Of a stretch of DNA of 48,520 bases, positions 9,809 to 47,834 are shown piece after piece. The stretch's first letter is position 1; every line of letters starts with the position of its first letter. Made by a program: the position numbers and the translations under genes. The stretch is from the IMG/VR virus record IMGVR_UViG_2563366838_000005, one strand, 5' to 3'. The DNA is from a virus (Duplodnaviria; Heunggongvirae; Uroviricota; Caudoviricetes). Under the pieces are notes generated by a model. It did not search any database. It was not told where the DNA came from and worked only from the letters and a program-made list of their open reading frames with translations.

Positions 9809-10152
9809 TGAACTCCTTCAAAGAGGTTATAGCGCAAGATATTTCTGCAATATTCCTCAATGAAAAAGAGTTTGCCGATACATATAACATAGACGGCAAG
9901 GATATCCTTGCCGTTATTGATACAGACCTTATTCATGAGCGGAATAAACGCTCATATGCTGAGTTTGCAGAGGGAATAAATCAGGGGCAAATAATATTAT
10001 TTGTTTCAAGAAAAGATTTTCCTGTTCTCCCTGTCAAAGACCAGTCAATGAAAATCAACGGTAAAAATTATATTATTGATGAAGTATCAGATAATGTTGG
10101 TGTATTGGAAATAACTCTCACTGTTAATACTAACAGAGGAATGCCGATTTGA
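9808..10152 (+). CDS. Putative head completion / head-tail connector protein
   Basis: Position between head and tail modules, overlapping start. Confidence 0.4.
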   Translation: MNSFKEVIAQDISAIFLNEKEFADTYNIDGKDILAVIDTDLIHERNKRSYAEFAEGINQGQIILFVSRKDFPVLPVKDQSMKINGKNYIIDEVSDNVGVLEITLTVNTNRGMPI

Positions 10153-20495: not shown

Positions 20496-23300
20496 GTGAG
20501 TAAATTATTATTTACGATGACTGACGCCGGGCGTAAGGCGCTGGTTAATGCCAACAAGACTGGAACAAATAAAGTTGAGATCGTTTCTGTTGGTTTAGGT
20601 AGTAGATATTATGCCACATCAACCACACAAACAAAAATAACAGATGAAATAAAGCGACTTACCACAATAGGAGGCAAAGTCGTTTCTCCTGATACCATTC
20701 ATGTAACTGCGAAGGATGATAGTAAAGATGAGTATGTTGTCCATACAATAGGTTTGTATACAAATAAAGGAACATTGTTTGCTGTATACTCGCAAGAACA
20801 AGTAATAATAAATAAAGCATCTTCTACAATTGCTTTAATATCAAGTGATATAGCAATTAAAAATCTTGATACTAAAAACATTACATTTGGTGATGTTGAG
20901 TTTATTAACCCTCCCGCAACCGAAACTGTTGTTGGAGTAGCAAGATTTGCTAATGAACAAGAAATTGATGCAGGTACAGATGATTCCCTGGCTGTTTCAG
21001 CAAAGCGGCTTAAGCAAGCTATTGTAAAACATGAGCAATCACGTAATCATCCTGATGCAACTTTAACATCAAAAGGCATTGTTCAACTCAGTAATGCCAC
21101 CAATAGCACGTCTGAAAAGCTCGCAGCGACGCCTAAGGCTGTTAAGGCTGCATATGACCTGGCTAACGCTAAATACACCGCACAGGACGCTACCACGGCG
21201 CGAAAAGGGATTGTTCAGCTCAGTAGTGCCACTAACAGTACGTCTGAAACGCAGGCGGCAACGCCAAAAGCGGTCAAGGCAGCAAATGACAACGCAAATT
21301 CACGTCTGGCGAAAAATCAGAACGGTGCAGATATCCAGGATAAATCAGCTTTTCTGGACAATGTTGGCGTTACTAGCCTGACGTTTATGAAAAACAATGG
21401 CGAAATGCCGGTTGATGCCGACCTGAATACATTTGGTCCCGTTAAGGCTTATCTGGGGATCTGGTCTAAAGCTACCTCAACTAACGCAACACTGGAGAAA
21501 AATTTCCCGGAAGATAATGCTGTCGGTGTGCTTGAGGTTTTTGCTGCCGGCAATTTTGCAGGTACTCAACGCTTTACCACGGGAGACGGCAATGTATACA
21601 TGCGTAAACTCGCCAGTAAGTGGAATGGCACTGATGGTCCGTGGGGCGTATGGCGTCACACTCAATCTGCTACCCGCCCTTTGAGTACGACTATAGACCT
21701 GAATACGCTTGGAGCCGCCGAGCATCTTGGTTTATGGCGTAACAGTAGCTCGGCTATAGCTTCATATGAACGCAATTATCCAGAGGAAGGCGGCTTTGCT
21801 CAGGGGACGCTTGAGATCCTCGAAGGCGGGAATTATGGAAGAACGCAACGTTATACCACTCGCCGTGGAAATATGTATGTCCGCTGCCTTGCGGCAAGCT
21901 GGGATGCATCAAATCCGCAGTGGGAACCGTGGTTAAGAGTCGGTCATCAGTCAGAGAGTCGTTATTACGACGGGGATTTGAATGATGTGACTTCACCAGG
22001 TATTTACAGCGTTACAGGTAAAGCGACCAATGGTCCAATACTGGACGGAAACGGCGTGACAGTCCTCGGTATTCTGGAAGTGTTGAGGCGCTTTGATGGT
22101 GTTAACGTATGGCAGCGTTATACAACTGCCGGAACAGGTACAACCCTTAAAGGTCGCACGTTTGAGCGCGTTTTTACCGGCAGCTCATGGAGCGAATGGC
22201 GGGAAGTCTACACCTCGTATTCACTTCCCCTGAATCTGGGTATCGGCGGTGCAGTGGCAAAGCTCACCAGCCTGGACTGGCAGACCCACGACTTTGTGCC
22301 GGGCAGTCTGATAACCGTTCGGCTTGATAACATGACCAACATTCCCGACGGTATGGACTGGGGCGTCATTGATGGCAACCTGATAAACATCGCAGTTGGT
22401 CCGAGTGATGATTCCGGTACGGGGCGCTCAATGCATGTATGGCGCAGCACTGTAAGTAAAGCGAATTACCGCTTTTTTATGGTGCGTATTTCAGGAAATC
22501 CGGGAAGCCGCACGATCACGACAAGACGTGTGCCAATTATCGACGAAGCTCAGACATGGGCGGCGAAACAGACATTCAGCGGTGGTCTTTCTGGTGAACT
22601 GTCCGGCAATGCGGCTACAGCTACAAAGCTGAAAACGGCAAGGACAATTAACGGCGTAAAATTTGACGGCTCGGCAAATATTGAAGCATTTCCGCCAGGT
22701 GTTCCGTTGCCGTGGCCATCAGATACACCACCTGCGGGCTATGCAATTATGCAGGGGCAGACGTTTGATAAGGCAGCATATCCGAAACTGGCTATAGCCT
22801 ATCCTTCTGGTGTTATTCCAGATATGCGCGGCTGGACAATCAAGGGCAAACCCGCCAGTGGGCGTGCCGTATTGTCACAGGAACAGGACGGGATTAAATC
22901 GCATACTCACAGTGCCAGTGCGTCAAATACGGATTTGGGAACGAAAACAACCAGTTCGTTTGATTACGGCACGAAGACGGTCAGTACGTTTAATCATGGC
23001 ACAAAATCAACGAACAATACGGGCAATCATACGCACACTGTCGGTGGTGTTTATGGCGGCGACTCTGTCGGTGGAAAACAGCGTGTACAGGCTTCAGGAA
23101 ACAATCAGGTGTCCAGCACCGCCGGAGCGCACGCCCATACGGTGGATATTGGTCAGCATAACCACACTGTAGGTATTGGTGCCCATGCACACACTGTAGC
23201 ATTAGGTGCGCACGGACACACCATCACGGTAAATGCTACGGGTAATACCGAAAACACCGTCAAAAACATCGCATTTAACTATATTGTGAGGCTTGCATAA
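20496..23300 (+). CDS. Tail fibre protein with internal repeats and His-rich C-terminal tip
   Basis: 934 aa; tandem GIVQLSxATNSTSE..ATPKAVKAA repeats, three ~80 aa DLNT..G(I/L)W repeats, C-terminal HTH/HAH/HNH/HGH repeat series. Confidence 0.85.
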
Positions 23301-23875
23301 TGGCTTTCAGAATGAGTGCAGAAGCACAAACTATCCGCGTTTTCAATTTACTTGATGGAACCAATGAATTTATTGGCGAAAGTGACGCATATATCCCACC
23401 GTATACTGGTCTGCCTGCAAACAGTACAGATATTGCACCGCCTGATATTCCGGCGGGTTATGCAGCCGTTTTCAATGCAGATGAAATGAAATGGGAACTG
23501 ATGGAAGACCATCGCGGAAAGACCGTCTATGAAACGAAAACGGGAGCAGCCATTTATATTTCTGAACTTGGCGTATTACCTCCAGACGTGACAGCCATTT
23601 CCCCGGAGGGGGATTATCAGAAATGGAACGGCAATGCGTGGGTGAATGATGAGAATGCAGAGCGTGATGCGCTTGTCAGAGCGGCTGACTCTCAGAAGAA
23701 AGAGCTGATTGCATATGCAGGTGAAATTATTGCCACTCTGCAGGATGCTGTCGATTTAGATATGGCTACCGAGGAAGAAAAGTTAAGCCTGACACACTGG
23801 AAAAAATACCGTGTGCTACTGAATCGCGTTCAGCCGGAAAATGCCCCTGATATCGAATGGCCAGAATTAGTGTAA
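23300..23875 (+). CDS. Tail fibre assembly protein (Tfa-like)
   Basis: 191 aa immediately after the fibre gene, start overlapping its stop. Confidence 0.75.
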
Positions 23876-23896
23876 AGGCAAGATGATTTAAGGAAC

Positions 23897-23925
23897 AAAA
23901 CCGCCAATATGTTTATTAGCGGTTT
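23897..23925 (+). terminator. Candidate terminator at end of late operon
   Basis: 7 bp stem aaaccgc/gcggttt followed by T-run; long loop makes it weak. Confidence 0.3.
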
Positions 23926-24187
23926 TGCATTAAGTCAAAACAACCCTTTAACGGAGCTGGCCGCGCTGTTAAGGGATGATGTCACCTTATCTTTGAAGCC
24001 GGACAGCATATTGCTGAACGATGAGTTTACCGCAGGTTTCTGGCTGGGAATCATTGACTGGAGTTAGGCCAGTAGTATGATGCTCGCAAAACGAGATCCA
24101 ATTTAGATCCTTTTACTGGTGGATTATCGTTCGATCAGTGAGAGACTTCGTGCATGACCGAAAGTGTTGTGGTAGAGTTCTCTTAAA

Positions 24188-24202
24188 ACCACGTAACGTG
24201 GT
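24188..24202. promoter_or_regulatory. ACCAC-N5-GTGGT palindromic operator upstream of repA
   Basis: accacgtaacgtggt; same palindrome family as in the cI/cro intergenic region. Confidence 0.4.
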
Positions 24203-24245
24203 TATGATTGTGGGTGTCTGGTTGGAAAGTGACCAGATATGGAAA

Positions 24246-24354
24246 CAAAAAGCCCGCAGATAAATCTGCGGGCTTCTTGCGACATCCACGGAAAACCAAC
24301 AACAACAATCCATGGGCGCCTCGACAACTCCCATTATACGTTGGTTTTCCGTGG
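24246..24354 (-). ncRNA. Candidate CopA-like antisense RNA over the repA leader
   Basis: Minus-strand hairpin plus T5 at 24246-24274 and a 15 bp perfect inverted repeat (24286-24300 / 24340-24354) just upstream of the repA start. Confidence 0.3.
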
Positions 24355-24370
24355 ACGCAAGAGCGAACAT

Positions 24371-25219
24371 ATGGATAGACCAATGCCGTCTCTACGTTCA
24401 GCTTACGTTTGTAATTTGTCGCCGGAGTTCCAGCCTCCAAAGCACCATACGCACAAGCTGCCGCTGGTGTTATCTGATGCTTTACAGCGCATTAATGGGC
24501 GTGATCTTACGTGTGAGGTTGCGTTCTACGTTAATCAACCGTCAGAGCGGAAGCGCCGGATAAACGAGCATCGTCGTCGGGCGATTAATGCTGTGATCGC
24601 TGCGATTTTGCACCATGTAAACATCATTTCTAAGCGGGTTCTGGCTAGTGCTGAGGCGTTGGCTGATTTTTGCGGCCTGTCTACCGTATCCGAAGCTGGG
24701 AACAAGTCTATAACGCGCTGTACAAGGGCGTTGTCGCAACTGAAAGCGTTAGGTTTTATTGATTATGAACGTCGCTGGGATCGGGTGAATAAACAGTATT
24801 GGCCAGCGAAAATAGAGATTCGTGATCAACTGCTGGAAACCGTTGGTATTACTGAACAAGCATGGAGACGTGCGGTTAGCCAGAAACTTAATTACTTCAA
24901 TGCGAAGAATAGCGAACGGCTTAAAAAAGCGATAACGGAGGCTGATTATAAGCGTATTGTTATTCAGGAGCAGATGGAGAATGTATGGCGTCAGAGGAAG
25001 ACGGCCAGAGAGATAAAGGCAAAACAGAAAGCAGCGGAGAGAGCTGCGCGTCTTGTTCGGGAAAAGGGAGAGGCCGAACTTCGTCATCAAATCACCAGAG
25101 AGGTTAGTCAGGAATTTGCTGATGGCATGTATCCTGGTGCTGACCTTGCATATTTACGATCCCTCGTTGAGCAGCGTTATAACAGGTTAAGAAAGACCTG
25201 GAAATCACTCCAACATTAA
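24371..25219 (+). CDS. repA: Plasmid replication initiator RepA, IncFII RepA1-like (ORF also open from 24239)
   Basis: Segment CGLSTVSEAGNKSITRCTRALSQLKALGFIDYE resembles IncFII RepA1 as recalled; basic C-terminal region; internal ATG at 24371 gives a 282 aa product. Confidence 0.7.
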   Translation: MDRPMPSLRSAYVCNLSPEFQPPKHHTHKLPLVLSDALQRINGRDLTCEVAFYVNQPSERKRRINEHRRRAINAVIAAILHHVNIISKRVLASAEALADFCGLSTVSEAGNKSITRCTRALSQLKALGFIDYERRWDRVNKQYWPAKIEIRDQLLETVGITEQAWRRAVSQKLNYFNAKNSERLKKAITEADYKRIVIQEQMENVWRQRKTAREIKAKQKAAERAARLVREKGEAELRHQITREVSQEFADGMYPGADLAYLRSLVEQRYNRLRKTWKSLQH

Positions 25220-25850
25220 CCCACCTGAATGATGAATCCGGTTTTACCGGAGGATTATCTACGTCGCAATAAAATATCTGTTCAAAAAACAATCTAAATT
25301 AATTTTCTCTAAACCTGAACACAGCAAAAATATCGCCTTTACAGGCATCGGCTAATAAAGTTATCCACAGTTCTGATATGTATATGCAAATGGTTTTTTA
25401 TAATAGATGCACTAAACAAATAAATGCAAAATCACTTTCTTTTATTAAGACTTTCTTTATTTAACTTACACAGGCTTTGCCTGTGAATATGTTCGCCCTT
25501 GCAGCGAGCTAAAGCTCGCGCCGGTTCGAGTCGCTACGCTCAAATATACCTCCTCCGGCACTTGCCGGAGGCATGGAGCAGCCTGATCATCCTTTTCGAA
25601 ACGGCACGTTTCGAACTATACAAAATCAATTTATATAAGGCCGAAATAAGGCCTACGGCCGGGCTTTGCAGGAGGAAGGGGCGAGCCTTATCAATAAACG
25701 TCGATAAATACGCACACAGTAGCCATCAGAACGCGATAAAATGTAAGAAACATCATTTCCTATTAGACATAGAAAACTTGTCTTATACGCAATGTAGTAA
25801 ATTTCTATTGCCACATAGGAAAAGATTTCCTACCATCGTAGATATAATAA
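25220..25850. promoter_or_regulatory. Candidate replication origin region downstream of repA
   Basis: AT-rich stretch, consensus DnaA box TTATCCACA at 25361-25369, several GC-rich hairpins at 25500-25660. Confidence 0.5.
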
Positions 25851-26150
25851 ATGGAGATGGTTATGGATAAAGATACTGTTTTAAAAATGTTGAATCCGGC
25901 TTGTTTAAAAAAAGCGGATGAATGGGAATCTCCTACATGTGGAGAAGTTCGGGCAGTCATTGGCCTGACCGGAATGAGCGGCTCGCAGTTAGCCAAAAAA
26001 CTAGGCTTAAAAGATAGTCGCAATGTTCGCAACTGGCAGATGTTAAAGGAGTCCACATCCAGATCCAGCATTCCGTATGCAGCCTGGGCGCTGCTGTGTT
26101 ACTTCGCTGGGTTAGGGTTAATCTTCATTGATAACAAAACAGATGTTTGA
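25851..26150 (+). CDS. Hypothetical protein with possible HTH
   Basis: 99 aa ORF; LTGMSGSQLAKKLGL segment resembles an HTH. Confidence 0.4.
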   Translation: MEMVMDKDTVLKMLNPACLKKADEWESPTCGEVRAVIGLTGMSGSQLAKKLGLKDSRNVRNWQMLKESTSRSSIPYAAWALLCYFAGLGLIFIDNKTDV

Positions 26151-26437
26151 AACATGCAAATATGAGGTTTGTTATGGAACTTGTACGCAAAACACGCAAA
26201 GAGTTCTTGGACCTGTATCGCATGGGAGCTTTCACTTGTGTTGTGGCTACCCAGGACGAAGTGACAAAAAGCTGGCGGCTTTTTGCTCTCAATAAAAAAG
26301 GGATTGCCGTTTTCATTGAAAAAGCCCGTGGTGGTATCCGCGAATGGGCGGGATTGAATTATGTGGCTGATTTTTGCGCAGCTATGGGGATTCGTCGCTG
26401 GGAAGTCCATATGCCAGGAGTAAAGTCACAAAAATAG
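26147..26437 (+). CDS. Hypothetical protein
   Basis: 96 aa ORF overlapping the previous stop. Confidence 0.4.
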   Translation: MKHANMRFVMELVRKTRKEFLDLYRMGAFTCVVATQDEVTKSWRLFALNKKGIAVFIEKARGGIREWAGLNYVADFCAAMGIRRWEVHMPGVKSQK

Positions 26438-26681
26438 GGCTTTCGCGTCGAAAATGAGGCGAAACTGAAAACGAGATTTCATTAACAAATAAGCAACATA
26501 AAAAACGGTGGAAAACGCCCAGGAAAACATGATCTTTTGAGCGGATTTTTTAGATCCGACAATGAACGGTGATCCGGTGGTGCCGATAACGTCCATTATG
26601 TTAAATAGCCCCGTTTTTCTTGAAATTATAACCTACGGGTTATATAGTCAGTGGTATAAACTACAGGTTATAGGATTGAGC

Positions 26682-27029
26682 ATGTGGACGGTACTTTTTA
26701 GCCAGCGATTTGACGACTGGCTAAATGAGCAAGAAGAGGCTCTTCAGGAAAAGGTTTTGGCTGATTTGAAAAATCTACAGGTTTACGGACCTGAGTTACC
26801 CAGGCCATATGCCGATACCGTAAAAGGTTCTCGGTACAAAAATATGAAAGAGCTTCGCGTTCAGTTTTCTGGCCGTCCGATAAGAGCCTTTTATGCGTTC
26901 GATCCGATTCGTCGGGCCATCGTTCTTTGTGCAGGAGACAAAAGTAACGATAAGCGGTTTTATAAAAAACTGGTGCGTATAGCTGAGGATGAGTTTGCAG
27001 CACATCTGAACACACTGGAGAGCAAGTAA
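26682..27029 (+). CDS. higB: Type II toxin, RelE/ParE superfamily (HigB-like)
   Basis: 115 aa from ATG 26682 with SD; KELRVQF..RAFYAF..IVLCAGDKSNDKR pattern; followed by overlapping HTH antitoxin; palindromic operators upstream. Confidence 0.7.
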   Translation: MWTVLFSQRFDDWLNEQEEALQEKVLADLKNLQVYGPELPRPYADTVKGSRYKNMKELRVQFSGRPIRAFYAFDPIRRAIVLCAGDKSNDKRFYKKLVRIAEDEFAAHLNTLESK

Positions 27030-27328
27030 TGAGAACATTAGATGAGGTGATTGCCAGCCGTTCACCTGAAAGCCAGGCGCGAATTAAAGAAATGGCAGAT
27101 GAGATGATTCTTGAGGTCGGCTTGCAGATGATGCGTGAAGAACTCCAGTTATCACAAAAACAGGTTGCTGAGGCGATGGGTATAAGCCAGCCAGCAGTAA
27201 CAAAGCTGGAGCAGCGCGGAAATGATTTAAAGCTGGCGACATTAAAGCGTTACGTTGAAGCTATGGGAGGCAAATTAAGCCTGGATGTTGAGCTTCCTAC
27301 AGGAAAGCGAGTAGCGTTCCATGTCTAA
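27029..27328 (+). CDS. higA: HTH antitoxin, HigA-like (XRE family)
   Basis: 99 aa; LSQKQVAEAMGISQPAVTKLE HTH; start overlaps toxin stop. Confidence 0.75.
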   Translation: MRTLDEVIASRSPESQARIKEMADEMILEVGLQMMREELQLSQKQVAEAMGISQPAVTKLEQRGNDLKLATLKRYVEAMGGKLSLDVELPTGKRVAFHV

Positions 27329-27361
27329 CATAATGTAAGGCCCCATTGGGGCCTTACTTAT

Positions 27362-27646
27362 TTACTTACCATTTTTGCGGTTTTTTTCGGACTTCATAAG
27401 CTGGCTAACGCGCCCAGGTGTGATATTTAACATGCGGCTTACTTCAGCTTGTGATCCTACTTCCTCTACTAGCGATGCAACATAGCGAGATTTTCCTGAG
27501 GAGGTTAATCCATTATATGTTGCTCGTGCGACTTTTCCCTGAGCTTCTCTCATATCAACTAATGCCTGAGCAACCTGCTCAAAACCTTTAATTGTTACTT
27601 CTGTTAATGCTCGAATAGCATCAATTTCAGATTTTGGTTTAGCCAT
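27362..27646 (-). CDS. Putative DNA-binding regulator (C-terminal HTH)
   Basis: 94 aa; SRMLNITPGRVSQLMK HTH-like segment; divergent from conserved promoter copy 1. Confidence 0.5.
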   Translation of the reverse strand: MAKPKSEIDAIRALTEVTIKGFEQVAQALVDMREAQGKVARATYNGLTSSGKSRYVASLVEEVGSQAEVSRMLNITPGRVSQLMKSEKNRKNGK

Positions 27647-27800
27647 TTGGCACCTCCAATTGTTTAAAATGTGTTAATTGTAAAATTCAGCCGATACCAT
27701 GTTCAATGGTATACCATTGCTGAAATGTCTTTTTCAAGACCTTGCCAATAAGCTAAACAAAAATGTTTAATGTGCAGCCTAAAAAAGCACCAGTCACTAT

Positions 27801-27913
27801 TATTTATATAATTATAGATTTATATAAAAAGTGCTTTACGGGTGGGAAAAAATTTCCTAAGGTTATACCCGAAACCGAGCGATACCCGCCCTGGTTAAAC
27901 CGGAGATAACCCG
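27801..27913 (+). promoter_or_regulatory. Conserved promoter/leader block, copy 1
   Basis: Near-identical to 37201-37320 and 45221-45336: TATAATTATAGATTTATATAA motif, TTTAC(A/G)-17 nt-TAAGGT, conserved leader ending GGAG-N8-ATG. Confidence 0.55.
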
Positions 27914-28294
27914 ATGAGCATGATTAAAATCCGCAAAAACGCTTTCCTTAAAATTCAAACTATCCTGGCTGGTTCTGTCGGCGTGATTTGCCGTTCTTCT
28001 TCAAGCCGCATCGATGACGGCTACGATGATGAGTATCGTGTGTCCTCGTGCGATGAGGCTTTAACCTGGCTGAAGGAGAATCAGGAACGTGCCCAGGTAT
28101 ATCTGGAAACAGAGAACGGCAATCAGATGCTGCGTATTAGCGGTCGTTATGGATTTGAAACTACATTCATGGCCTATTTTAATCAGGCTTACTTTGACAA
28201 GGAGCTGGCCTGGTACACTGACCGCATGAGCAAAAGCGAGCCAGCCCCGATTACACCGCCGAACAATAAACCATTTTTATTCCTCGTTAAGTAA
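27914..28294 (+). CDS. Hypothetical protein (126 aa) driven by conserved promoter copy 1
   Basis: ORF starts exactly at the end of the conserved block. Confidence 0.5.
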   Translation: MSMIKIRKNAFLKIQTILAGSVGVICRSSSSRIDDGYDDEYRVSSCDEALTWLKENQERAQVYLETENGNQMLRISGRYGFETTFMAYFNQAYFDKELAWYTDRMSKSEPAPITPPNNKPFLFLVK

Positions 28295-28357
28295 ACACAA
28301 TGCGCAAAGTGTCATTTTGACACTTTGCGAGTGTTAATATTGTTCGAGGAGGATGCT

Positions 28358-28537
28358 ATGACGGGTTATGAATTGAAATTATGGCGTCGTGGGATGAATT
28401 GGACGCAGGAGCGAGCCGCTGAAGAGTTTGGGATATCGTTGGCTACATATAAGCGATATGAGAAGGGTGAGCCGCCGAGGGTCATTGAGATGGCCATTCG
28501 CGTTCTGTCGTTTGACGATATGGTTAAGGATCTTTAA
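28358..28537 (+). CDS. Small HTH protein (XRE-like)
   Basis: 59 aa from ATG 28358 with GAGGAGG SD; WTQERAAEEFGISLATYKRYE HTH. Confidence 0.55.
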   Translation: MTGYELKLWRRGMNWTQERAAEEFGISLATYKRYEKGEPPRVIEMAIRVLSFDDMVKDL

Positions 28538-28677
28538 CACCTTGATAAAGATGCGATTCTGTTAAGGCTGCAAACCCTTGTATGGGAAAAGGTTAAAGTG
28601 TCGTCAGAATTGGAACAAGGGATCAAATGATCCTTTACGGATCGTTTTATGGTGGTGTAATGTAAGCGCCAGAAAGA

Positions 28678-28704
28678 CAAAAACCGCCTTGCCGGGCGGT
28701 TTTC
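28678..28704. terminator. Hairpin terminator, A-run upstream and T-run downstream (possibly bidirectional)
   Basis: aaaaccgcc ttgccgg gcggtttt. Confidence 0.5.
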
Positions 28705-29265
28705 AGTCTGAAATTTAAATCTTGCTTGGTAGGCTGGATTTAAAAAGACACCTCTTGATTGGGGCGGCTTTCTTGCGTCTAAAGATAATCAAATCTTTTT
28801 GCGCCTGCAACCCCTTTTTTACTGGTGCCCATTTCAGACTCACGCTCGCGTCGTTGTCTTTGCCACTTCGTTGGGTTCGGTGTTTTTGGGCGAAGTGGCG
28901 CGCGGGTATGCGTACAAGGGGAAAGTGTGCTGACGCAAGCCAGGAACAGCGATCTAAACTAAGTCGAGTCTGAGAAAGGCAGGAGTGCGACAACTCGCCT
29001 GTGCTCTATGAGCAGAAGAAGGTATATCAGACGACCAATGGCATGATTGTGGGCCACAGGGCGCACACGGCGGCGAAGCATTGGAAACGATGTGGAGCTA
29101 TCTGGTGGCATGAGTTCCGGTACTCGATCTCGAGCTTTTTTTGATGCTTTTGAGAAGGGGCCGGAACTCCGGTAAAGGGCACCTTGTATGGGGGGAGGGG
29201 GGGTTGTGTCTTAAGGAAGATCTAATACGATATTGCTTTACCCTTATATCTAAAAGGAGATTTCT

Positions 29266-29901
29266 ATGGGGATGCTGGTGGCGTTTATTATTAGCCTGAT
29301 TTTGTGTTTCTTCGTAGTTCGTGGCGCATATCGGAAACAATGTGCCTCGTCTTCTGGTGGTAAGTTCAAAGCTGTTTTAGTGAGTGGCTTTCTCGGGATT
29401 GCAACTTTTGTAGTTGTTAATACTCTTGCGGCTGTGACCTTGATCCCAGAAGACTCTAACACTGCGGCTACTACCGGAGCTGCTTTTGATGGTGTGACCG
29501 TAGATAAGTTTAAGAAGTTATATAATGATGACCTTGAAGGCATCGCTACATCAGGAAAAACCACCTCCACTATAAGAATTAAGTCTGTTAAACAAGGTAA
29601 CAACACCGTTGAATTTGCCATCAACTCATCTGTTAACGGTCGGGCTAGAGTTGATAAGGATGGGAAGATTTCTGAGTTATTATGGCGAGTATCCAAGCCT
29701 AACTCTGATTCCTTGCTTTCTATGGCCGTAGCAGTTGAAGTCTTGGATGCGTCAAGTGAAAGAGACACCGTGATTGCGCAGTTAGAGCAGATTGTTAAAT
29801 CTGGTATGCAGAAAGCTGAGTTCAAGACTAAGAGAGGCGAGTATTACGTTTCTCGTGACAAATCAGGGCATGTATCGCTACTGATTACACCGAAATATTA
29901 A
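29266..29901 (+). CDS. Membrane-anchored hypothetical protein (211 aa)
   Basis: AGGAG SD; two N-terminal hydrophobic segments; stop followed by hairpin terminator. Confidence 0.6.
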   Translation: MGMLVAFIISLILCFFVVRGAYRKQCASSSGGKFKAVLVSGFLGIATFVVVNTLAAVTLIPEDSNTAATTGAAFDGVTVDKFKKLYNDDLEGIATSGKTTSTIRIKSVKQGNNTVEFAINSSVNGRARVDKDGKISELLWRVSKPNSDSLLSMAVAVEVLDASSERDTVIAQLEQIVKSGMQKAEFKTKRGEYYVSRDKSGHVSLLITPKY

Positions 29902-29910
29902 GAATTGAAG

Positions 29911-29937
29911 AAGCGCCCAAATCGGGCGCTTTGTTTT
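29911..29937. terminator. Terminator hairpin between convergent genes
   Basis: agcgccc aaat cgggcgct followed by ttgtttt; sits between convergent stops at 29901 and 29936. Confidence 0.6.
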
Positions 29938-31087
29938 ATGGTTTTGCACCTGCGGCCAGTTTATCCGCAGATATTTTTATCAGTTCCTGTAGTGTCTTGG
30001 CTGGCAGGTTTGCATCCAGAACGCTGAGTATGCTGTTGTGATCAGCTTGGTCGACTACTTTGCCTGTCGGTGGTAGTAGCTTGAGCTGAGGATTCAGGTT
30101 TTCGTCAAAGCTGATAAGTGCTCTGGCGTTTCTGAGCAGATCAAGAAGTAAGGCTGATATCACATTTTCCTGAGTCATTGCTGGCAGATTTAGCACCGCT
30201 TTGGTTTTCCCTGTTGCCTTGTCAAACTCCTTGATTAGTTCCTTCCTGTAGTTCGGTTCCGTTAATAGCCGATTATGCTCTGTTGCCGCGCGGATAATCG
30301 TTTTTTCCTGGTACAGTCGTTTAGCCAGATCGCGCTCGTACTGTGTTTTTAACACGCTGCTGATAGCGTTAAAGGCTTCAATGTAGGCCAGCTTGATATC
30401 CTTCACGCCTGGACCGTCGATACTTTCCATGAGCAAGGTAAATCCGTCTTTTGTCATGCGATAGATTGTTATTTCGCGGTCGCTTCCTTCCAACGGTCGT
30501 TGCTCTTTAAAGAAATGACGCGCCGCAGCTGTGCGAGGAATGCGTAACGCATCGATGGCCATAACGATGGAATTGTTTGTGGTGCTGAATGCTTGGGCAA
30601 CATCGGCTGAGGTTGTGAGTGGCTCGTTGTTGCACACCTTAACGTAATACATTGGTTTGGCGTTGAGCGTATCGACAACCTCACGAGCATTGTTTGGTGA
30701 GACGGTTACGGTCGCGGCCGTTTGCGCGTTCTGGCTGAAATAGCAGTCTTCCAGCCGTTCGAACACATCCCACGCCTGATCGGTTTCGAGCATTTTAGCG
30801 TGACGTGCAGCCCCGCGTTCTGTCCAGAGGATGAGAGAGCGAGTTTTGGGGGAAATTTGTACCTCATTTTGTGACTCGTTTAAAACTAGTCGCAAATTTT
30901 TGAGTTCATCACCAACAGCTTTAAAGAAGTGCTTCCCCTCAATGAACCGAGTTTTATTTTCATGGTGATTTTGCTGTATACGGATTGCTTCTGTTCCATA
31001 AAGGCGGGCGAGTAGCTCAGTTGTGATTACTGGAATCTGATTATGCAGGATAGGCTGTAGGGTGTTAACGGTCCGAAGCGTTTTCAT
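29936..31087 (-). CDS. Phage antirepressor / regulatory protein (ORF6N-like N-terminus, Rha-like C-terminus)
   Basis: 383 aa; domain layout recalled from antirepressor families; start overlaps upstream small ORF. Confidence 0.65.
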   Translation of the reverse strand: MKTLRTVNTLQPILHNQIPVITTELLARLYGTEAIRIQQNHHENKTRFIEGKHFFKAVGDELKNLRLVLNESQNEVQISPKTRSLILWTERGAARHAKMLETDQAWDVFERLEDCYFSQNAQTAATVTVSPNNAREVVDTLNAKPMYYVKVCNNEPLTTSADVAQAFSTTNNSIVMAIDALRIPRTAAARHFFKEQRPLEGSDREITIYRMTKDGFTLLMESIDGPGVKDIKLAYIEAFNAISSVLKTQYERDLAKRLYQEKTIIRAATEHNRLLTEPNYRKELIKEFDKATGKTKAVLNLPAMTQENVISALLLDLLRNARALISFDENLNPQLKLLPPTGKVVDQADHNSILSVLDANLPAKTLQELIKISADKLAAGAKP

Positions 31088-31371
31088 TTTGCACCTCCCA
31101 TAACTACTTTGGTTACGAGGGAGATTTTTGCGTCAGAAACAGCGTTATCGTTGCTGGCGATGCGCATAGCTTCGCGCTCGATGATTTCAGCCAGGCGGAA
31201 TTTATCGGCGTATGAGGCTTTCTTGAGAAGGATCTTTACGAGATTGACGTAATAGTCATGGGGTAAGTTTGTCATGATGATAGTTCCAGTTTTGATATTG
31301 GAATAATCACCACCGCTGACGCCAATCAGTGAGGTGGTGAGACGTACAGGGTTGGCGTAACCGGTCATCAT
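31084..31371 (-). CDS. Hypothetical protein translationally coupled to antirepressor
   Basis: 95 aa ORF whose stop overlaps the antirepressor start. Confidence 0.45.
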   Translation of the reverse strand: MMTGYANPVRLTTSLIGVSGGDYSNIKTGTIIMTNLPHDYYVNLVKILLKKASYADKFRLAEIIEREAMRIASNDNAVSDAKISLVTKVVMGGAK

Positions 31372-31441
31372 GATACCCGGCGAGCCTTACGGCTCCCCCG
31401 CACGCCCCACCATAATTCGGGTGTAGCTGTGCTTTACGCAT

Positions 31442-31462
31442 AAAAAAACCGCTAACGCGGTA
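31442..31462 (-). terminator. Candidate minus-strand terminator in antirepressor operon leader
   Basis: On minus strand: 5 bp stem accgc/gcggt, 4 nt loop, then T7. Confidence 0.35.
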
Positions 31463-31608
31463 TGCGCCATGATGATTATCGGGACGCCAATCCCGACCGT
31501 AGATTTTGCTACGGCTCGGAAAGTGTCCACCAATGGCGCATTCATGTCAATACGGCAGGATTTTAACAGAGACAACCACATAGCGTGGGTTTATTGGTAG
31601 GCAGAAAC

Positions 31609-31635
31609 AAAAAAACCGCCCTATTGAGGACGGTT
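31609..31635 (-). terminator. Candidate minus-strand terminator in ORF-poor region
   Basis: On minus strand: 8 bp stem with one G-U pair, 6 nt loop, then T7. Confidence 0.45.
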
Positions 31636-32032
31636 CTTTCGTGCTGATCGGATTCGCGGTCCTTTCAGCATTACGTTGTTGTATAAACAACCACGCAAGC
31701 ACAAGCAGCAAGTTAATTTTACCCAAAAGGTAATAATAGTCCACTATTATGCTTCAAAAAATTGTGGTTCTTGTTGTGCCTGCAAACTCACAGATTGTGG
31801 GTAGGTTACTGATTTTGTGAAAATAAACGAGTTTTTTCGTTTAATTTCTTTCCTATTACTAATCTTAAAATAATCGTAAAATACCTGTGGACCTTCCCGC
31901 CGATTCGCACCCGGGCACCGACTTTAGGGGAGGATTCTCCGTTGCCGTACATGCAAGCACAAGCAGCCGTGCTTGCTCTCGCGTTGTTTTCGTCGGTGGG
32001 GATGCCGTGAAACGGCCTGTAAGGGCCATACA

Positions 32033-32155
32033 ATGAAAAAATACTGTATGTGTATTTTTATCGTTGTTACTGGGGCTTTGTTTACGCCACATGGGGAGGG
32101 TTGGAAGATTACTGATAACGCTCTGAATGTGACGATAAACATTAGCAGCAAGTAG
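32033..32155 (+). CDS. Candidate small hydrophobic peptide (40 aa)
   Basis: ATG 32033; hydrophobic core CMCIFIVVTGALF; strong terminator 6 nt after the stop; weak SD. Confidence 0.3.
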   Translation: MKKYCMCIFIVVTGALFTPHGEGWKITDNALNVTINISSK

Positions 32156-32160
32156 CGATT

Positions 32161-32185
32161 AGGCCCCTTCGGGGGCCTTTTTTTA
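32161..32185 (+). terminator. Rho-independent terminator
   Basis: aggcccc ttcg ggggcct followed by T7. Confidence 0.7.
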
Positions 32186-32194
32186 TGGCTGAAT

Positions 32195-32377
32195 TTAAAC
32201 GCTGGAGCGCATTAAGCCTTTCAGAACTGCTTCACGTACCCATTCTGGCCTGGTGGATAGCAGGGCAAATAAGCAGCCAGCTTGCAGCCGTTTGAGGTCG
32301 GTTAGACGAGTTTTCAGTAACCGTGTATATTGTTGCTCGGACATAACAAATTCCCCTTGTTGTGTCGCGACGGCCAA
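32195..32377 (-). CDS. Hypothetical small protein downstream of par genes
   Basis: 60 aa ORF only. Confidence 0.3.
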   Translation of the reverse strand: MAVATQQGEFVMSEQQYTRLLKTRLTDLKRLQAGCLFALLSTRPEWVREAVLKGLMRSSV

Positions 32378-32406
32378 CAGTTGGCGCTGGAGGCCGTCAC
32401 CTTCTC

Positions 32407-32655
32407 TTACTTCTGGTTGTATTGAGCCTTGAGTAACTCAAAAGACTTTGTCAGCACTTCTTTCAATGACATATCCATTGAGCTGGCGAACGTTTTGTAC
32501 TCGCGTTTAAATTCAGGGTCGACGTTAAACGCCATTTGTGCCCCACCTGATTTGGTTCTGGTTGGCGTTTCAGTCGGGTCGAAAACCTGCGGTTGTTCGA
32601 TCGATGGCGGTACGCCTTTGCTGTTCTTCTTTGGTGGTTTTGATGGTGCGGCCAT
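32407..32655 (-). CDS. Partition protein, ParG-like ribbon-helix-helix
   Basis: 82 aa; C-terminal NVDPEFKREYKTFASSMDMSLKEVL resembles ParG RHH; immediately downstream of ParA. Confidence 0.65.
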   Translation of the reverse strand: MAAPSKPPKKNSKGVPPSIEQPQVFDPTETPTRTKSGGAQMAFNVDPEFKREYKTFASSMDMSLKEVLTKSFELLKAQYNQK

Positions 32656-32698
32656 GTGTATCCCCTCTTATATAAATCTATAAAACTATAATTATATA

Positions 32699-33367
32699 TT
32701 ATGCGGCAGTAGTCAGAGCCTCAAGCTGGTTGATAATCCCCTGAATAACGTCGTCTGCCTTTTTGCGTGGCGCAACGTATGAGCACTCAATGAGGCTTAA
32801 GCCCTTATCCTGAGCTTTGCTCAGAGCTGGCTTGTGGGGAATGTACTTATCGACAACAAAGTATGGCGTATTAGCCAGGTACTCTTGGGCTTCAATATAG
32901 TCAGCTTCGTTTTCAGCCGCGCCGGAAAACACCATGCAAATTTTCTTGATTGGTACACCCTTTTTAACGATGCCGTGAGCAGTGTTAACGGTGGTTTCCA
33001 GGTCATCGGTAGAGAATCGGGTTGGCAAAATAACCATATCCAGAAATTCAGATAGCTTCGGTACTGATTCAGATGCGTAGGCACCGCCATCGACGATAAC
33101 CAGGTCGTATACTTCTGATTCGATGATTTTCTGGACTTGTGATGGTGTGCCGCACGGCTGCGCCGCGATTGCTGGTTCGATATTGTTGGCCATTCTGCGT
33201 TGTACCCAACGCGTTACCGTTCCGTTAAGCACATCCATATCGATCAGGCATACATTCCAGCCAGCCTTTGCATAAGCAACTGCTAAAGCACGGGCAATTG
33301 TTGATTTGGTTACGCCGCCTTTTCCGTTGAAAATACCTACAGAGATAGTCATTTGTCGAGACTCCAT
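32699..33367 (-). CDS. parA: Partition ATPase ParA (type Ib)
   Basis: 222 aa; deviant Walker A GIFNGKGGVTKST; paired with a small RHH protein. Confidence 0.85.
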   Translation of the reverse strand: MESRQMTISVGIFNGKGGVTKSTIARALAVAYAKAGWNVCLIDMDVLNGTVTRWVQRRMANNIEPAIAAQPCGTPSQVQKIIESEVYDLVIVDGGAYASESVPKLSEFLDMVILPTRFSTDDLETTVNTAHGIVKKGVPIKKICMVFSGAAENEADYIEAQEYLANTPYFVVDKYIPHKPALSKAQDKGLSLIECSYVAPRKKADDVIQGIINQLEALTTAA

Positions 33368-33480
33368 GTGTTTGGTTATATAATTCTATAAATCTATATT
33401 TATAGAACGAGGTAAGCATAACCAACTTTTTGGCTGATGAAAAGCGTTTTATATAATTATATAAAACTATAATCATATAA
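33368..33480. promoter_or_regulatory. Candidate partition site / par operator with TATA-rich iterons
   Basis: Two clusters (about 33375-33405 and 33445-33478) of CTATAA/TTATAG-type ~8 bp repeats upstream of parA; a third between parG and parA (32663-32698). Confidence 0.45.
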
Positions 33481-33502
33481 GCGGGCGTTAGCCCGCTTGC
33501 AG

Positions 33503-33877
33503 TCAGAGGTCAGCTATCGTTGATATCAGTTGATTTGCTAGCTGTCGCTGTTTACGTGAGAGGGTTAGAGCAGCTTCTGAGCGGTCGCTAAGAGGGGGGT
33601 TTTCATCAAGAATCATGAGGCATACAGAAATAATAGCCCTGTTATATGCCATCAATGGCTGGCACAGCTTCGATACCGCTGGCACATCGTATTGTAAGGC
33701 CGTTTTGAGGCAGACTTTTTGTTCTGATGCCAGATGAAGGATAGATTCTATCCAGTCGATATCTTTCTCATTATCAATGATTTGGCATAACATACACTCA
33801 ATCGCTATGTTCAACGCTTGGATTTCGATTCCAGCAGTGATCAGAGTTTCGTTTTTATTGGCTGTATGTAATTCCAT
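33503..33877 (-). CDS. Hypothetical protein
   Basis: 124 aa ORF between cI and parA. Confidence 0.45.
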   Translation of the reverse strand: MELHTANKNETLITAGIEIQALNIAIECMLCQIIDNEKDIDWIESILHLASEQKVCLKTALQYDVPAVSKLCQPLMAYNRAIISVCLMILDENPPLSDRSEAALTLSRKQRQLANQLISTIADL

Positions 33878-33912
33878 GCGTAGCCTCTTTTATACTTTTA
33901 CATGTTGTCAAA

Positions 33913-33927
33913 ACCACAAAATGTGGT
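33913..33927. promoter_or_regulatory. ACCAC-N5-GTGGT palindrome downstream of cI (operator and/or terminator)
   Basis: accacaaaatggtggt-type palindrome (accacaaaatgtggt) followed by T-run. Confidence 0.4.
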
Positions 33928-33969
33928 TTTTTTGAGCGTAGAAATGCACGGCTTTCGCCGTGCTGTGTA

Positions 33970-34626
33970 TCATAACCAGTTGACAACACTAACTACGCGG
34001 CCAAGAACTTTATAACGCTTAAATTCCTCGTTATTCAGATGCTTAGTGTTCATTTCAGCATCCCTTTCGGTTGACAGCATAACAGCATTGTCACCCGGTA
34101 TGACTCTACAGTGCCTCAAAACAACCAGGCCATTTCTGTCTTCAAGGGCATAGATCCCCTCATGAATCTCTGTATCGTCTGTATTAATCAGGACTTGGGA
34201 GCCTGGGGATATTGTTGGTGACATTAACTCATCGTTGCTCTGGAGAACTGACAGAGACGATGGGTTGATGTTCTTGCTTCGTAGAATCTCCTGTTCTATC
34301 GCCAGCACTGGCTTTTCTCCGGCGTGCGATGCTATGTCATTTTTTATAGCTACAAGCCCAGGAATAACAGGAGCGTTAGTATTCTGGGGTGGGAACGGGT
34401 TATCTGTTAAGCACGCGATATAAGGCGCTGATGCTTTCAGGGCGTGCGCGATTTTCTTGATGGCAGGTATAGATGGTTGTCTTAATCCGGCCTCATAGTT
34501 CTGCAAGGTGCTTAAGCCTATTCCAGTGACTTGCTGGAGATCTCCGGCAGTCATGCCGGATTGTTTCCGTAGAGTCTGAATGCGCAGACCTATTTCTTTC
34601 TTGATGTTCTCGTCGTTGCTTTTCAT
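33970..34626 (-). CDS. CI-like prophage repressor (N-terminal HTH, C-terminal S24 LexA-like peptidase domain)
   Basis: 218 aa; HTH GMTAGDLQQVTGIGLSTLQNYE; C-terminal domain with S24-like layout; divergent from Cro-like gene. Confidence 0.8.
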   Translation of the reverse strand: MKSNDENIKKEIGLRIQTLRKQSGMTAGDLQQVTGIGLSTLQNYEAGLRQPSIPAIKKIAHALKASAPYIACLTDNPFPPQNTNAPVIPGLVAIKNDIASHAGEKPVLAIEQEILRSKNINPSSLSVLQSNDELMSPTISPGSQVLINTDDTEIHEGIYALEDRNGLVVLRHCRVIPGDNAVMLSTERDAEMNTKHLNNEEFKRYKVLGRVVSVVNWL

Positions 34627-34800
34627 GTCTCATCAATCGTGAATGGTGGGTTATTTATACATTACCACATTTAGTGGTTTTCACATGGTAAGACGAGAGG
34701 TGGACCACAAATAGAAGGTTATTTTTTGTTTTGCCCATTGAAAAACTCACGATATGTGGTTTTAATACCACATATCGTGGTTTTAACTGGAGTTCGTTAA
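34627..34800. promoter_or_regulatory. Immunity-region operator/promoter region between cI and cro-like genes
   Basis: ACCAC-N5-GTGGT at 34664-34678 and 34767-34781, the latter within a 13 bp perfect inverted repeat (34748-34760 / 34767-34779). Confidence 0.55.
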
Positions 34801-35295
34801 ATGACCTTTCAGGAGTGGGTTGACGAAAATGGAGGCCAAATTGGTGTTGCCAGAAAGTTTGGCTTTACGTCATCACTGATTGGTGCCTGGTATCGCTTCG
34901 AGAGATTCCCTCGTGCGGATAACCTGACGCTGCTGGTGGCGTATTCGGAAGGCCGGATTAACGTCCAGCAATGGGCGGCAGATTTTGCCGAACGTCAGCG
35001 CCAGCGTAGCGATGGCACATCGGTTCGGCAGAACAAGATCAAAGGGAATCTCCCTGTTAACTGCTTATCAAGGCTGAAAGCGGTTTTCTCTGAGTTGGGG
35101 ATGCCTGCGGAGCGTTGCAATCTACGCGGTCCGCGATTCATTGCTCGCTGGAAACACTCACACGTAACCGTTTCAGAGGTTCGTGATGCGATTACCGTGC
35201 TGGAGCTTAAGAATAAAGATTCCAGCGATATCGAGCTGATTCATAAGGAGATTAGCAACGCCCGGCGTTCAGCACTTGGGAGGCTTGAGGAATGA
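34801..35295 (+). CDS. Cro-like HTH regulator with C-terminal extension
   Basis: 164 aa; N-terminal Cro/YdaS-like HTH; divergent from cI. Confidence 0.5.
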   Translation: MTFQEWVDENGGQIGVARKFGFTSSLIGAWYRFERFPRADNLTLLVAYSEGRINVQQWAADFAERQRQRSDGTSVRQNKIKGNLPVNCLSRLKAVFSELGMPAERCNLRGPRFIARWKHSHVTVSEVRDAITVLELKNKDSSDIELIHKEISNARRSALGRLEE

Positions 35296-42289: not shown

Positions 42290-42434
42290 GTATTGTTTTT
42301 TTATTGATCGATCAACCACATTTTGAAGGTTTTTTTATGAAGAAACCTTGTTTTAGGTGGTAACTGGGTGTAGTGTTTCATTTAACGTAGTAAAACTGCG
42401 TTAAGCGATTACCGCGTAATTTGTTGCTTTATGA

Positions 42435-42465
42435 AGCCCTGCCTTTTCGGCGGGGCTTTTTTTTA
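42435..42465 (+). terminator. Rho-independent terminator immediately upstream of holin gene
   Basis: 9 bp stem agccctgcc/ggcggggct with one G-U pair, loop ttttc, then T8. Confidence 0.55.
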
Positions 42466-47210: not shown

Positions 47211-47834
47211 ATGACAAAACATCTTAATGTGGTTTCTTTACCACTTTCTGTGTTGATTGGTTATGAAAAGAACGCTCGCACACACTCCGTGGAGCAGGTA
47301 GATCAGATTGTTGCCAGCATACAGGAGTACGGATGGACTAATCCGATCCTGATAGACGAGAACAACGTTGTAATTGCTGGTCATGGTCGAATTGCTGCGG
47401 CCACTCAGTTGGGGATGGATGATGTTCCCTGCATTGTTCTGGCTGGGCTAACGGAGAATCAGAAGAAGGCATATCGTCTGGCCGACAACCGTATTCCGCT
47501 GAATGCTGGTTGGGATGAAGAGTTGTTAAGCGCGGAGCTTGCAGATCTTGCGGCCGATGATTTTGCTCTGGACTCAATTGGTTTTACTCAGCGCGAACTG
47601 GATAACTTATTGAGTGCGGCAGTCTACGATGACACAGAGGGTATGGATATCCCATTTGAGAAGGATGAGGCCAAATCAGGCGTAAAAGTTCAGTACCTGT
47701 CATTTGGAGGTCATAAAATCCCGGCAACGGATGAGGAAGCGGATCGTTTTGACTGCGCGGTGTCTCGTTATGTTGATGATAATGGCAGCTATATCGGATT
47801 TGTATCCGCATTGCTGGCTGGGGAGGTGTGCTGA
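47211..47834 (+). CDS. ParB-like nuclease domain protein (paralog of 2076..2666)
   Basis: KNARTHS and GHGRIAAA motifs; stop overlaps the start of the next gene. Confidence 0.75.
   Translation: MTKHLNVVSLPLSVLIGYEKNARTHSVEQVDQIVASIQEYGWTNPILIDENNVVIAGHGRIAAATQLGMDDVPCIVLAGLTENQKKAYRLADNRIPLNAGWDEELLSAELADLAADDFALDSIGFTQRELDNLLSAAVYDDTEGMDIPFEKDEAKSGVKVQYLSFGGHKIPATDEEADRFDCAVSRYVDDNGSYIGFVSALLAGEVC

Follow-up and report, generated by a model that had tools for sequence, protein, structure and literature searches.

An immunity-type, operator-like palindrome at the repA control region of an IncFII-family phage-plasmid

The 48,520-nt stretch analysed here (IMG/VR record IMGVR_UViG_2563366838_000005, Caudoviricetes; hereafter the window) carries a palindrome of the form ACCAC-N5-GTGGT both in its immunity region, between the genes cI and orf164 and beyond cI, and upstream of repA, the gene of an IncFII-family replication initiator. 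From sequence comparison, these sites are probably operators of the CI-like immunity repressor, including the site at repA, where the repressor would act in the role of CopB and throttle replication. The window is essentially a complete circular phage-plasmid (48.5 kb) of the myovirus type.

Exact copies of ACCACNNNNNGTGGT (ACCAC-N5-GTGGT) are present at four positions in the window, 24188-24202, 33913-33927, 34664-34678 and 34767-34781, against an expectation of 0.03, and none of 100 dinucleotide-preserving shuffles reached four. The first-pass annotation had named all of them, two in the cI/cro-like gap, one downstream of cI and one near repA, and its positions are exact; its list for the gap missed two further sites. 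A degenerate copy that it had also pointed out, at 31575-31589 (ACCACATAGCGTGGG), differs by one mismatch and lies, in a context unseen before, at the front of a P1-type c4-ant operon. The one-mismatch search that returned this site gave three more matches, all inside coding regions. These (16631, 21855, 47240), together with the pair 47219/47240, were taken as noise, as they fall in coding sequence and score at most 13 bits. The pair consists of two weak motif matches 21 bp apart (47219-47254), just within the 5' end of a ParB/Srx-domain gene starting at 47211, and is probably coincidental. A repeat finder to which no pattern was given recovered the same site family and added the two missed members of the gap. 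One of them, 34746-34760 (CTCACGATATGTGGT), lies 21 bp from the 34767 site, with which it jointly forms a 34-bp palindrome centred on the -10 element of the promoter PR; the other, 34704-34719 (ACCACAAATAGAAGGT), is a variant with the pattern ACCAC-N5-GAAGGT. The switch has two sites around the PR -10, another on the cI side and another just beyond cI.

To rank the sites we used a position weight matrix (PWM) trained on 12 immunity-region sites from three related lineages, with every repA site excluded. The scores in the window are given in Table 1; the next match, at 13.2 bits, marks the background. With this matrix, which was not trained on it, the repA-proximal site scores as high as the switch operators. 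The top five matches in Salmonella Weltevreden plasmid 3 and in the Citrobacter relatives are the same five positions, and in a K. aerogenes locus (L036) that stops short of repA the top four are the four switch-side positions. In every element of lineages A-C (defined below) the 33913-type site is the top match, with 30.9-32.5 bits, and the 21-bp operator pair is found in lineages B, C, D and E as well.

Five lineages were compared, with the E. coli element of the window as the reference (lineage A). Identity to the window is 65% for CI and 86% for RepA in lineage B (Salmonella/Citrobacter), 62% and 81% in lineage C (Yokenella/Klebsiella-type), 33% and 29-37% in lineage D (Serratia marcescens p2, L027), and 30% and ~32% in lineage E (L028-L030), the RepA of lineage E being ~27% identical to that of lineage D. 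A site upstream of repA is kept in every lineage where repA is visible. It reads ACCAC GTAAC GTGGT in A, ACCAC GTTGT GTGGT in B, ACCAC GATGT GTGGT in C, ACCCC GAAAT GTGGT and CTCCC AATTT GTGGT in D, and ACTAC AAAAC GTAGC in E. Across lineages A-C the ten half-site bases are invariant, unlike the 5-nt spacer (GTAAC, GTTGT, GATGT) and the flank downstream of the site. Most switch sites of lineage E are ACTAC/GTAGT, and the repA site drifts likewise, so that it follows the switch motif. Lineage-specific PWMs for D and E were again trained with the repA site excluded; the latter was the best non-training match in the Serratia 46.7-kb plasmid (19.9 bits) and, among such matches, ranked second in L028 and first in L029 (13.8 bits). 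Directly observed are the motif with its significance and positions, its conservation and its co-variation. At the level of sequence, the link between an immunity-region regulator and repA that the first-pass annotation had suggested is supported by all computational tests able to contradict it (chance, site strength, conservation and co-variation). The nearest RepA outside the family (37% identity, from a K. quasipneumoniae plasmid) was of no use for co-variation; its plasmid has type IV secretion (conjugative-transfer) genes and is classed as mobilizable by MOB-suite.

The same comparison makes it extremely unlikely that chance accounts for the repA copy, or that it is a small RNA or DNA hairpin without a regulatory protein partner. 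Short palindromes can form hairpins, and our scan flagged the PR pair as terminator-like. Against this, the number of matches expected by chance is far below one (see above), the half-sites are invariant instead of co-varying, no T-run follows the repA site, and the halves of lineage D (ACCCC / GTGGT) are unable to pair and yet the strong half is still kept. A hairpin or terminator reading of the palindromes was rejected for the invariance of the half-sites and the pairing lost in lineage D.

In agreement with a function as an operator, the repA-proximal site occupies a fixed place relative to a predicted promoter. The description of repA as IncFII-like, made earlier from the sequence, is borne out by its Pfam match to IncFII_repA (E = 1.3e-43), and a Serratia relative is typed IncFII by MOB-suite. 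RefSeq records use two starts for the gene, 24383, which gives the 278-aa form that aligns across lineages, and an in-frame ATG at 24239; the distance to the palindrome, quoted before as about 170 bp, is 181 nt from the first and 37 nt from the second. Upstream lies the extended -10 element of the predicted repA promoter P2 (TG at 24170-71, TAGAGT at 24173-78), and the site starts 9 nt after it. In all lineages 9-10 nt separate the invariant TGnTAGAGT from the start of the site, and these linkers differ in sequence among A-C, D and E; an operator placed in this way would span about +3 to +18. Farther upstream is a second predicted promoter, P1, close to consensus, which lineages A, B, D and E keep at 88-96 nt before TGnTAGAGT; transcripts of either predicted promoter must cross the operator-like site. 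The TATGAT directly after the site (24203-24208) was rejected as the -10 of repA, since L001 has TACGAT there and lineages C-E an unrelated sequence.

The segment between P1 and P2 holds a pair of Dam sites, beside which a third GATC lies within 24095-24136. All lineages have two GATC sites at this spacing, and in lineage D the 230 nt upstream contain as many as nine. The cluster at 24095-24136 might act on the repA promoter as an element for SeqA/Dam sequestration.

Copy number in IncFII-type plasmids (R1/R100) is set mainly by antisense RNA, and the R1 circuit combines the antisense RNA CopA with a CopB-repressed promoter, PrepA (Nordstrom's reviews). With R1/R100 the window shares the RepA family as assigned by Pfam, two tandem promoters before repA with a repressor-type site at the proximal one, and a predicted countertranscript with a stem-loop and a terminator over the leader. 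This countertranscript would be ~85 nt long, with a terminator hairpin at 24250-24275 followed by a U-run, and the region gave fold z-scores of -8.7 and -6.2. Its minus-strand promoter (TTGCnT-16/18-TATAAT), the loop GGAGUUGUCGAGGC and the terminator are all kept in the comparison of lineages, in which 7 base pairs have compensatory changes. In contrast to R1/R100, the countertranscript region has no match to Rfam CopA at E <= 1, and RepA aligns with classical IncFII RepA along part of its length, at only ~32% identity. A copB gene is absent as well: no copB-like open reading frame (ORF) lies between the promoters and repA, and the ~90 nt between P1 and P2 hold no ORF; the operator-like site fits the phage repressor motif instead. 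As for a leader peptide of the tap type, coupled to repA in translation, lineage D does not keep the ATG at 24312.

Given that antisense RNA is the main determinant of copy number in R1 and R100, and that single remote operators could stabilise higher-order repressor complexes, the repressor bound at 24188 might serve long-range looping or storage, comparable to OL-OR of lambda, with little direct effect on repA or copy number. We consider this improbable, as five lineages keep a fixed distance to the -10 element although the linker changes, which points to selection for a promoter-proximal position.

For repression of repA by the CI-like protein we propose the following mechanism. A dimer would contact two 5-bp half-sites with centres 10 bp apart and, besides the divergent cI/PR switch, would occupy single remote operators at repA (24188), at c4-ant (31575) and at orf124 next to the partition genes (33913). 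Because the repA operator is located past the extended -10 of P2 and downstream of P1, a repressor bound at about +3 to +18 would block initiation or act as a roadblock, leading to less repA mRNA, and the CopA-like antisense RNA would then fine-tune RepA synthesis. The CI-like repressor would thus fill the place of CopB in an IncFII-like, antisense-RNA-controlled replicon. In lysogeny it would repress repA partly, and since cI is plasmid-borne and its dosage follows copy number, this would amount to CopB-like negative feedback. Inactivation of CI by the antirepressor Ant would release the lytic operon, the ant operon (with positive feedback) and repA together and lead to lytic replication. RepA would also drive the latter, because no second replication initiator is recognisable in the element, where nothing closer was found than a DUF3560 protein that partly matches a 'primase' PHROG.

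The CI-like protein has a helix-turn-helix (HTH) domain (Pfam HTH_3, 4.5e-11), and its PDB matches are HTH domains of the XRE, SinR and C-protein types, in line with its earlier description as CI-like. The recognition helix, STLQNYEAG, does not vary among the lineages; the pair of residues preceding it changes from GL in A-C to PR in D and E, parallel to the looser, asymmetric sites of these two lineages. HTH proteins that share TLQNYEAG in L031-L033 were uninformative, being small regulators, apparently from Firmicutes as judged by eye, with different operators. The match to Peptidase_S24 (18.4 bits) is under the cut-off of 23.3 bits. In a manual alignment against LexA, lineages A-C have by eye DELMSPTI for GDSMEPTI (Ser to Leu) and VLRH for VKRL (Lys to Arg); the Ser motif is also absent in D and E, the stretch being DDLLDEV in D. 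The repressor appears unable to cleave itself. As it appears to lack self-cleavage residues, the antirepressor is the likely trigger, on which induction probably depends. Near ant or cI no LexA box was found; the sole match, at 10121, is what chance would give.

The CI-like repressor appears to be the better binder candidate than orf164, because of the placement of the sites and the precedent of phiKO2, where CB and not Cro acts on the repA operators. That the repA-proximal site is used mainly by orf164, the Cro-like protein of the first-pass annotation, so that replication would be modulated after induction and not in lysogeny, seems unlikely to us. Its gene is the first after PR, a putative HTH segment is conserved across lineages, and lambda-type Cro and CI use common operators. 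The name Cro-like, however, finds only a weak profile match, between the orf164 N-terminus and P22 Cro (hhalign, E = 0.0015, probability 17%), and orf164 has no Pfam match, no PDB sequence match and no recognised DNA-binding domain. In phiKO2, Cro binds only one switch operator and not the repA operators, which CB does bind (PMC4997575). Moreover, silencing the sole recognisable initiator during lytic growth would be counter-productive.

Several points weigh against repression of repA by the CI-like protein. The repA site of L027 is weak (12.5 bits), the sites of lineages D and E are asymmetric, with one strong half, GT[G/A]GTT, and one weak half, and lineages A-C share ancestry in the repA region, so they do not count as independent observations. 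The binding protein, the transcription starts (from consensus only), the repression itself and the effect on copy number are all inferred. CI and orf164 always co-occur, and the CI homologues detected by protein search are confined to this phage-plasmid family (13 clusters, all on 46-49 kb contigs or fragments), so that comparative data cannot separate the two as binder; scans of genome contigs found no integrated prophages with the same CI and another Cro. Finally, full repression of repA would be lethal for the plasmid, and repression must therefore be partial.

The two other remote sites suggest that the same repressor probably also controls a P1-like c4-ant antirepressor operon and the promoter of orf124. 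The 31575 site precedes the a1/b1 match by 47 nt, and counterparts were found in lineage C members, L026 (18.1 bits) and Citrobacter L035 (18.3 bits). The immI module behind it is of the P1 type, although it resides on a phage-plasmid that is not P1. Between the partition genes and the c4-ant operon, a strong full-length match to the RNA ryfA (31887-32183, + strand; 141.8 bits, gathering 80) was observed; chromosomal ryfA is linked to a small toxin/antitoxin RNA pair.

The position of the highest-scoring site near the partition gene cluster raises the question whether the sites are instead dispersed centromere-like partition sites of a ParA-associated DNA-binding protein, with the nearness to promoters being secondary. 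N15 has such an arrangement, with four scattered centromeres near promoters. However, parA has its own AT-rich repeat array directly upstream, of a separate type in each lineage (TATAATTATATAA-type in A-C, TAAAGATT in D and GATATAAAGATAT in E), and is followed by the gene of a ParG-like 82-aa protein. In the window, two clusters of TATAATTATATAA / TATAGAATTATATAA repeats (33375-33480, read on the - strand) flank the parA promoter region. As each lineage has its own repeat type, these repeats are likely the centromere/operator of the small ParA and 82-aa ParG-like system. Such lineage-specific arrays upstream of parA are the usual layout for a small ParA with a ribbon-helix-helix partner and argue, together with the ParG-like protein, against the ACCAC sites as centromeres. 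The ACCAC motif changes little between lineages, unlike the parA repeats, orf124 is not conserved between lineages A and D, and three to four of the sites lie on the PR and cI promoters with the 21-bp spacing typical of repressor operators. A partition function of the sites is hence very improbable.

A further perfect palindrome, ACCATGTTCAATGGT, followed by another ACCAT, is found at 27696-27710, in the gap between the divergent ORFs 27362-27646 (-) and 27914-28294 (+), with a small HTH gene nearby. A different regulator may have its operator here.

Table 1. Coordinates of the sites, promoters, RNAs and genes discussed, with scores from the PWM trained on immunity-region sites
Feature	Position	Strand	Sequence or elements	PWM score (bits)	Remarks
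Upstream promoter P1	24054..24081	+, towards repA	TTGACT-16-TATGAT		sigma-70-like; promoter scan, 10/12 matches
Dam-site pair	24095..24110		GATCC-N6-GATCC		between P1 and P2; once in window vs 0.05 expected
Predicted repA promoter P2	24170..24178	+	extended -10 TGgTAGAGT		TGnTAGAGT invariant in all lineages, flanks diverge
O(repA)	24188..24202		ACCACGTAACGTGGT	29.4	operator-like palindrome, ~+3 to +18 of predicted repA promoter; exact match, PWM, 5 lineages
Predicted CopA-like countertranscript unit	24242..24360	-	-35 TTGCGT 24360-24355, -10 TATAAT 24338-24333		
repA	24383..25219	+			IncFII-family replication initiator, 278 aa; PF02387, E = 1.3e-43, 149.8 bits (cut-off 22.9); RefSeq
P1-like immI module	29936..31528	-			C4 RNA, isrK-like RNA, a1/b1 targets, Ash-like ORF, antirepressor
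Antirepressor	29936-31087	-			ORF6N and pRha domains (Pfam)
Ash-like ORF	31084-31371	-			
C4 antisense RNA	31330-31417	-			Rfam C4, 81 bits (gathering score 45)
a1/b1 targets and isrK-like RNA	31442-31528	-			isrK 70.9 bits (gathering 50); c4-a1b1 41 bits, below gathering 46.7
O(ant)	31575..31589		ACCACATAGCGTGGG	20.2	one mismatch; directly upstream (- strand) of c4-ant operon
O(L-like)	33913..33927		ACCACAAAATGTGGT	30.9	perfect palindrome between cI terminator hairpin and orf124
cI-like repressor gene	33970..34626	-			218 aa; XRE-type HTH, S24-like C-terminal domain without Ser/Lys dyad
cI-side switch operator	34664..34678		ACCACATTTAGTGGT	25.8	exact match
PR promoter	-35 34738-34743, -10 34761-34766		TTGAAA-17-TTTAAT		-35 TTGAAA, -10 TTTAAT
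Tandem operators	34746-34760 and 34767-34781			25.3 and 30.3	21 bp apart; bracket PR -10
orf164	34801..35295	+			first gene of rightward (lytic) operon, 164 aa; phrog_7452, function unknown

The principle that a repressor controls repA is already known from N15/phiKO2, and similarly from P1. In N15/phiKO2, CB binds the operators OL1/OL2 at the repA promoter, represses repA and lowers copy number; it lacks LexA-type self-cleavage motifs, and induction proceeds through an antirepressor (PMC4997575). The window resembles this system in having (predicted) operators of the same motif at the switch and at the promoter of the replication initiator, a CI that appears to lack self-cleavage residues, and an antirepressor. 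N15, however, is linear and siphovirus-type, with a large multidomain RepA encoded beside cB, two OL sites and a T-A-N10-T-A motif, whereas the element in the window is circular and myovirus-type, with an IncFII-family RepA, a predicted antisense RNA, the motif ACCAC-N5-GTGGT and a single predicted operator 10 kb from cI. As its RepA belongs to IncFII_repA and its CI homologues are confined to the family, the sequence comparison makes it an analogue of N15/phiKO2 and not a member.

P1 has a C1 operator, Op51, at its antirepressor operon. In total its C1 operators number 22 and are dispersed, one of them serving RepL (PMC8546580). The element in the window is like P1 in that repressor-type sites are dispersed over a plasmid prophage, with one at a replication gene (repL in P1), and in that a bona fide C4 RNA and an antirepressor lie behind such a site. 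P1 C1 is unrelated to the XRE-type CI and has an asymmetric 17-bp operator, and it controls a separate lytic replicon and not the plasmid replicon, while the window apparently has a single initiator.

To the cI/cro region of lambda the likeness lies in the divergent repressor gene and lytic operon, several operators in the gap, a further one beyond cI and a pair in helical phase over PR. Differences from lambda are the C-terminal domain of CI, without the Ser/Lys dyad and with DELMSPTI in place of GDSMEPTI, the 164-aa product of the first lytic gene in place of a small Cro, and the remote sites at the replication and antirepressor genes. The variant ACCAC-N5-GAAGGT occurs twice in the window (34704-34719, 42315-42330) against 0.02 expected, at positions that are both conserved in lineages A-C. 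Downstream of the copy at 42315-42330, which is upstream of the lysis genes, a strong terminator (about 42433-42462) follows after ~120 nt, ahead of the holin gene; Serratia has a 21-bp site pair upstream of holin. The layout of the 42315 site and the terminator before holin recalls late control at PR'-tR' of lambda.

The window is 97-99% identical to non-mobilizable E. coli plasmids of ~47-50 kb and to the Yersinia phages vB_YpM_39/41/44. An annotated relative, NZ_CP024865, carries a capsid module with a head decoration protein, a contractile tail, lysis genes, an invertible tail-fibre segment, an IncFII-family repA, a small ParA, a HigB/RelE toxin-antitoxin (TA) pair and the immunity region. 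Among 5,426 complete E. coli genomes the repA control region is present in 71 (~1.3%), in every case on a plasmid, and the reference strain E. coli ATCC 25922 is the carrier of one family member. Besides E. coli, hosts are Salmonella, Citrobacter, Klebsiella and Serratia, and the family includes the Yersinia phages. The gene order repA - TA - ant - parA - orf124 - cI, with orf164 divergent from cI, is shared by at least five syntenic lineages. The pSLy3 group was rejected as a relative, being a 114-kb SSU5-type element outside the family. In Serratia marcescens p2 (L024, CP083756) a resolvase gene and blaTEM-1 are inserted just upstream of the repA control region (22462-24062); since this heteroimmune member has blaTEM-1, the phage-plasmid family is able to carry resistance genes. 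We found no paper on this phage-plasmid family or on vB_YpM_39/41/44.

Phage-plasmids must reconcile low-copy maintenance with run-away lytic replication, and the present family appears to use a single initiator for both. What is new here, in relation to the known systems, is an IncFII-like antisense replicon with a phage repressor in the slot of CopB, the distance of 10 kb between the two loci, and a P1-type c4-ant operon under the same motif. A possible but rather doubtful extension is that, by taking over the CopB slot, one protein both reports copy number and sets immunity. Were copy number to fall, repression of replication would be lifted, and the c4-ant operon, being under CI control as well, would move the element closer to induction. 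This would be a dosage-coupled decision to replicate or leave, possibly with looping among at least six operators over 10 kb. For a family that is uncharacterised, the sites provide a concrete and testable wiring diagram. If it is true, the N15-type logic of a repressor that controls repA would have evolved independently on an antisense-RNA replicon by replacement of CopB, and a six-site repressor regulon would link replication, the antirepressor and the lytic promoters.

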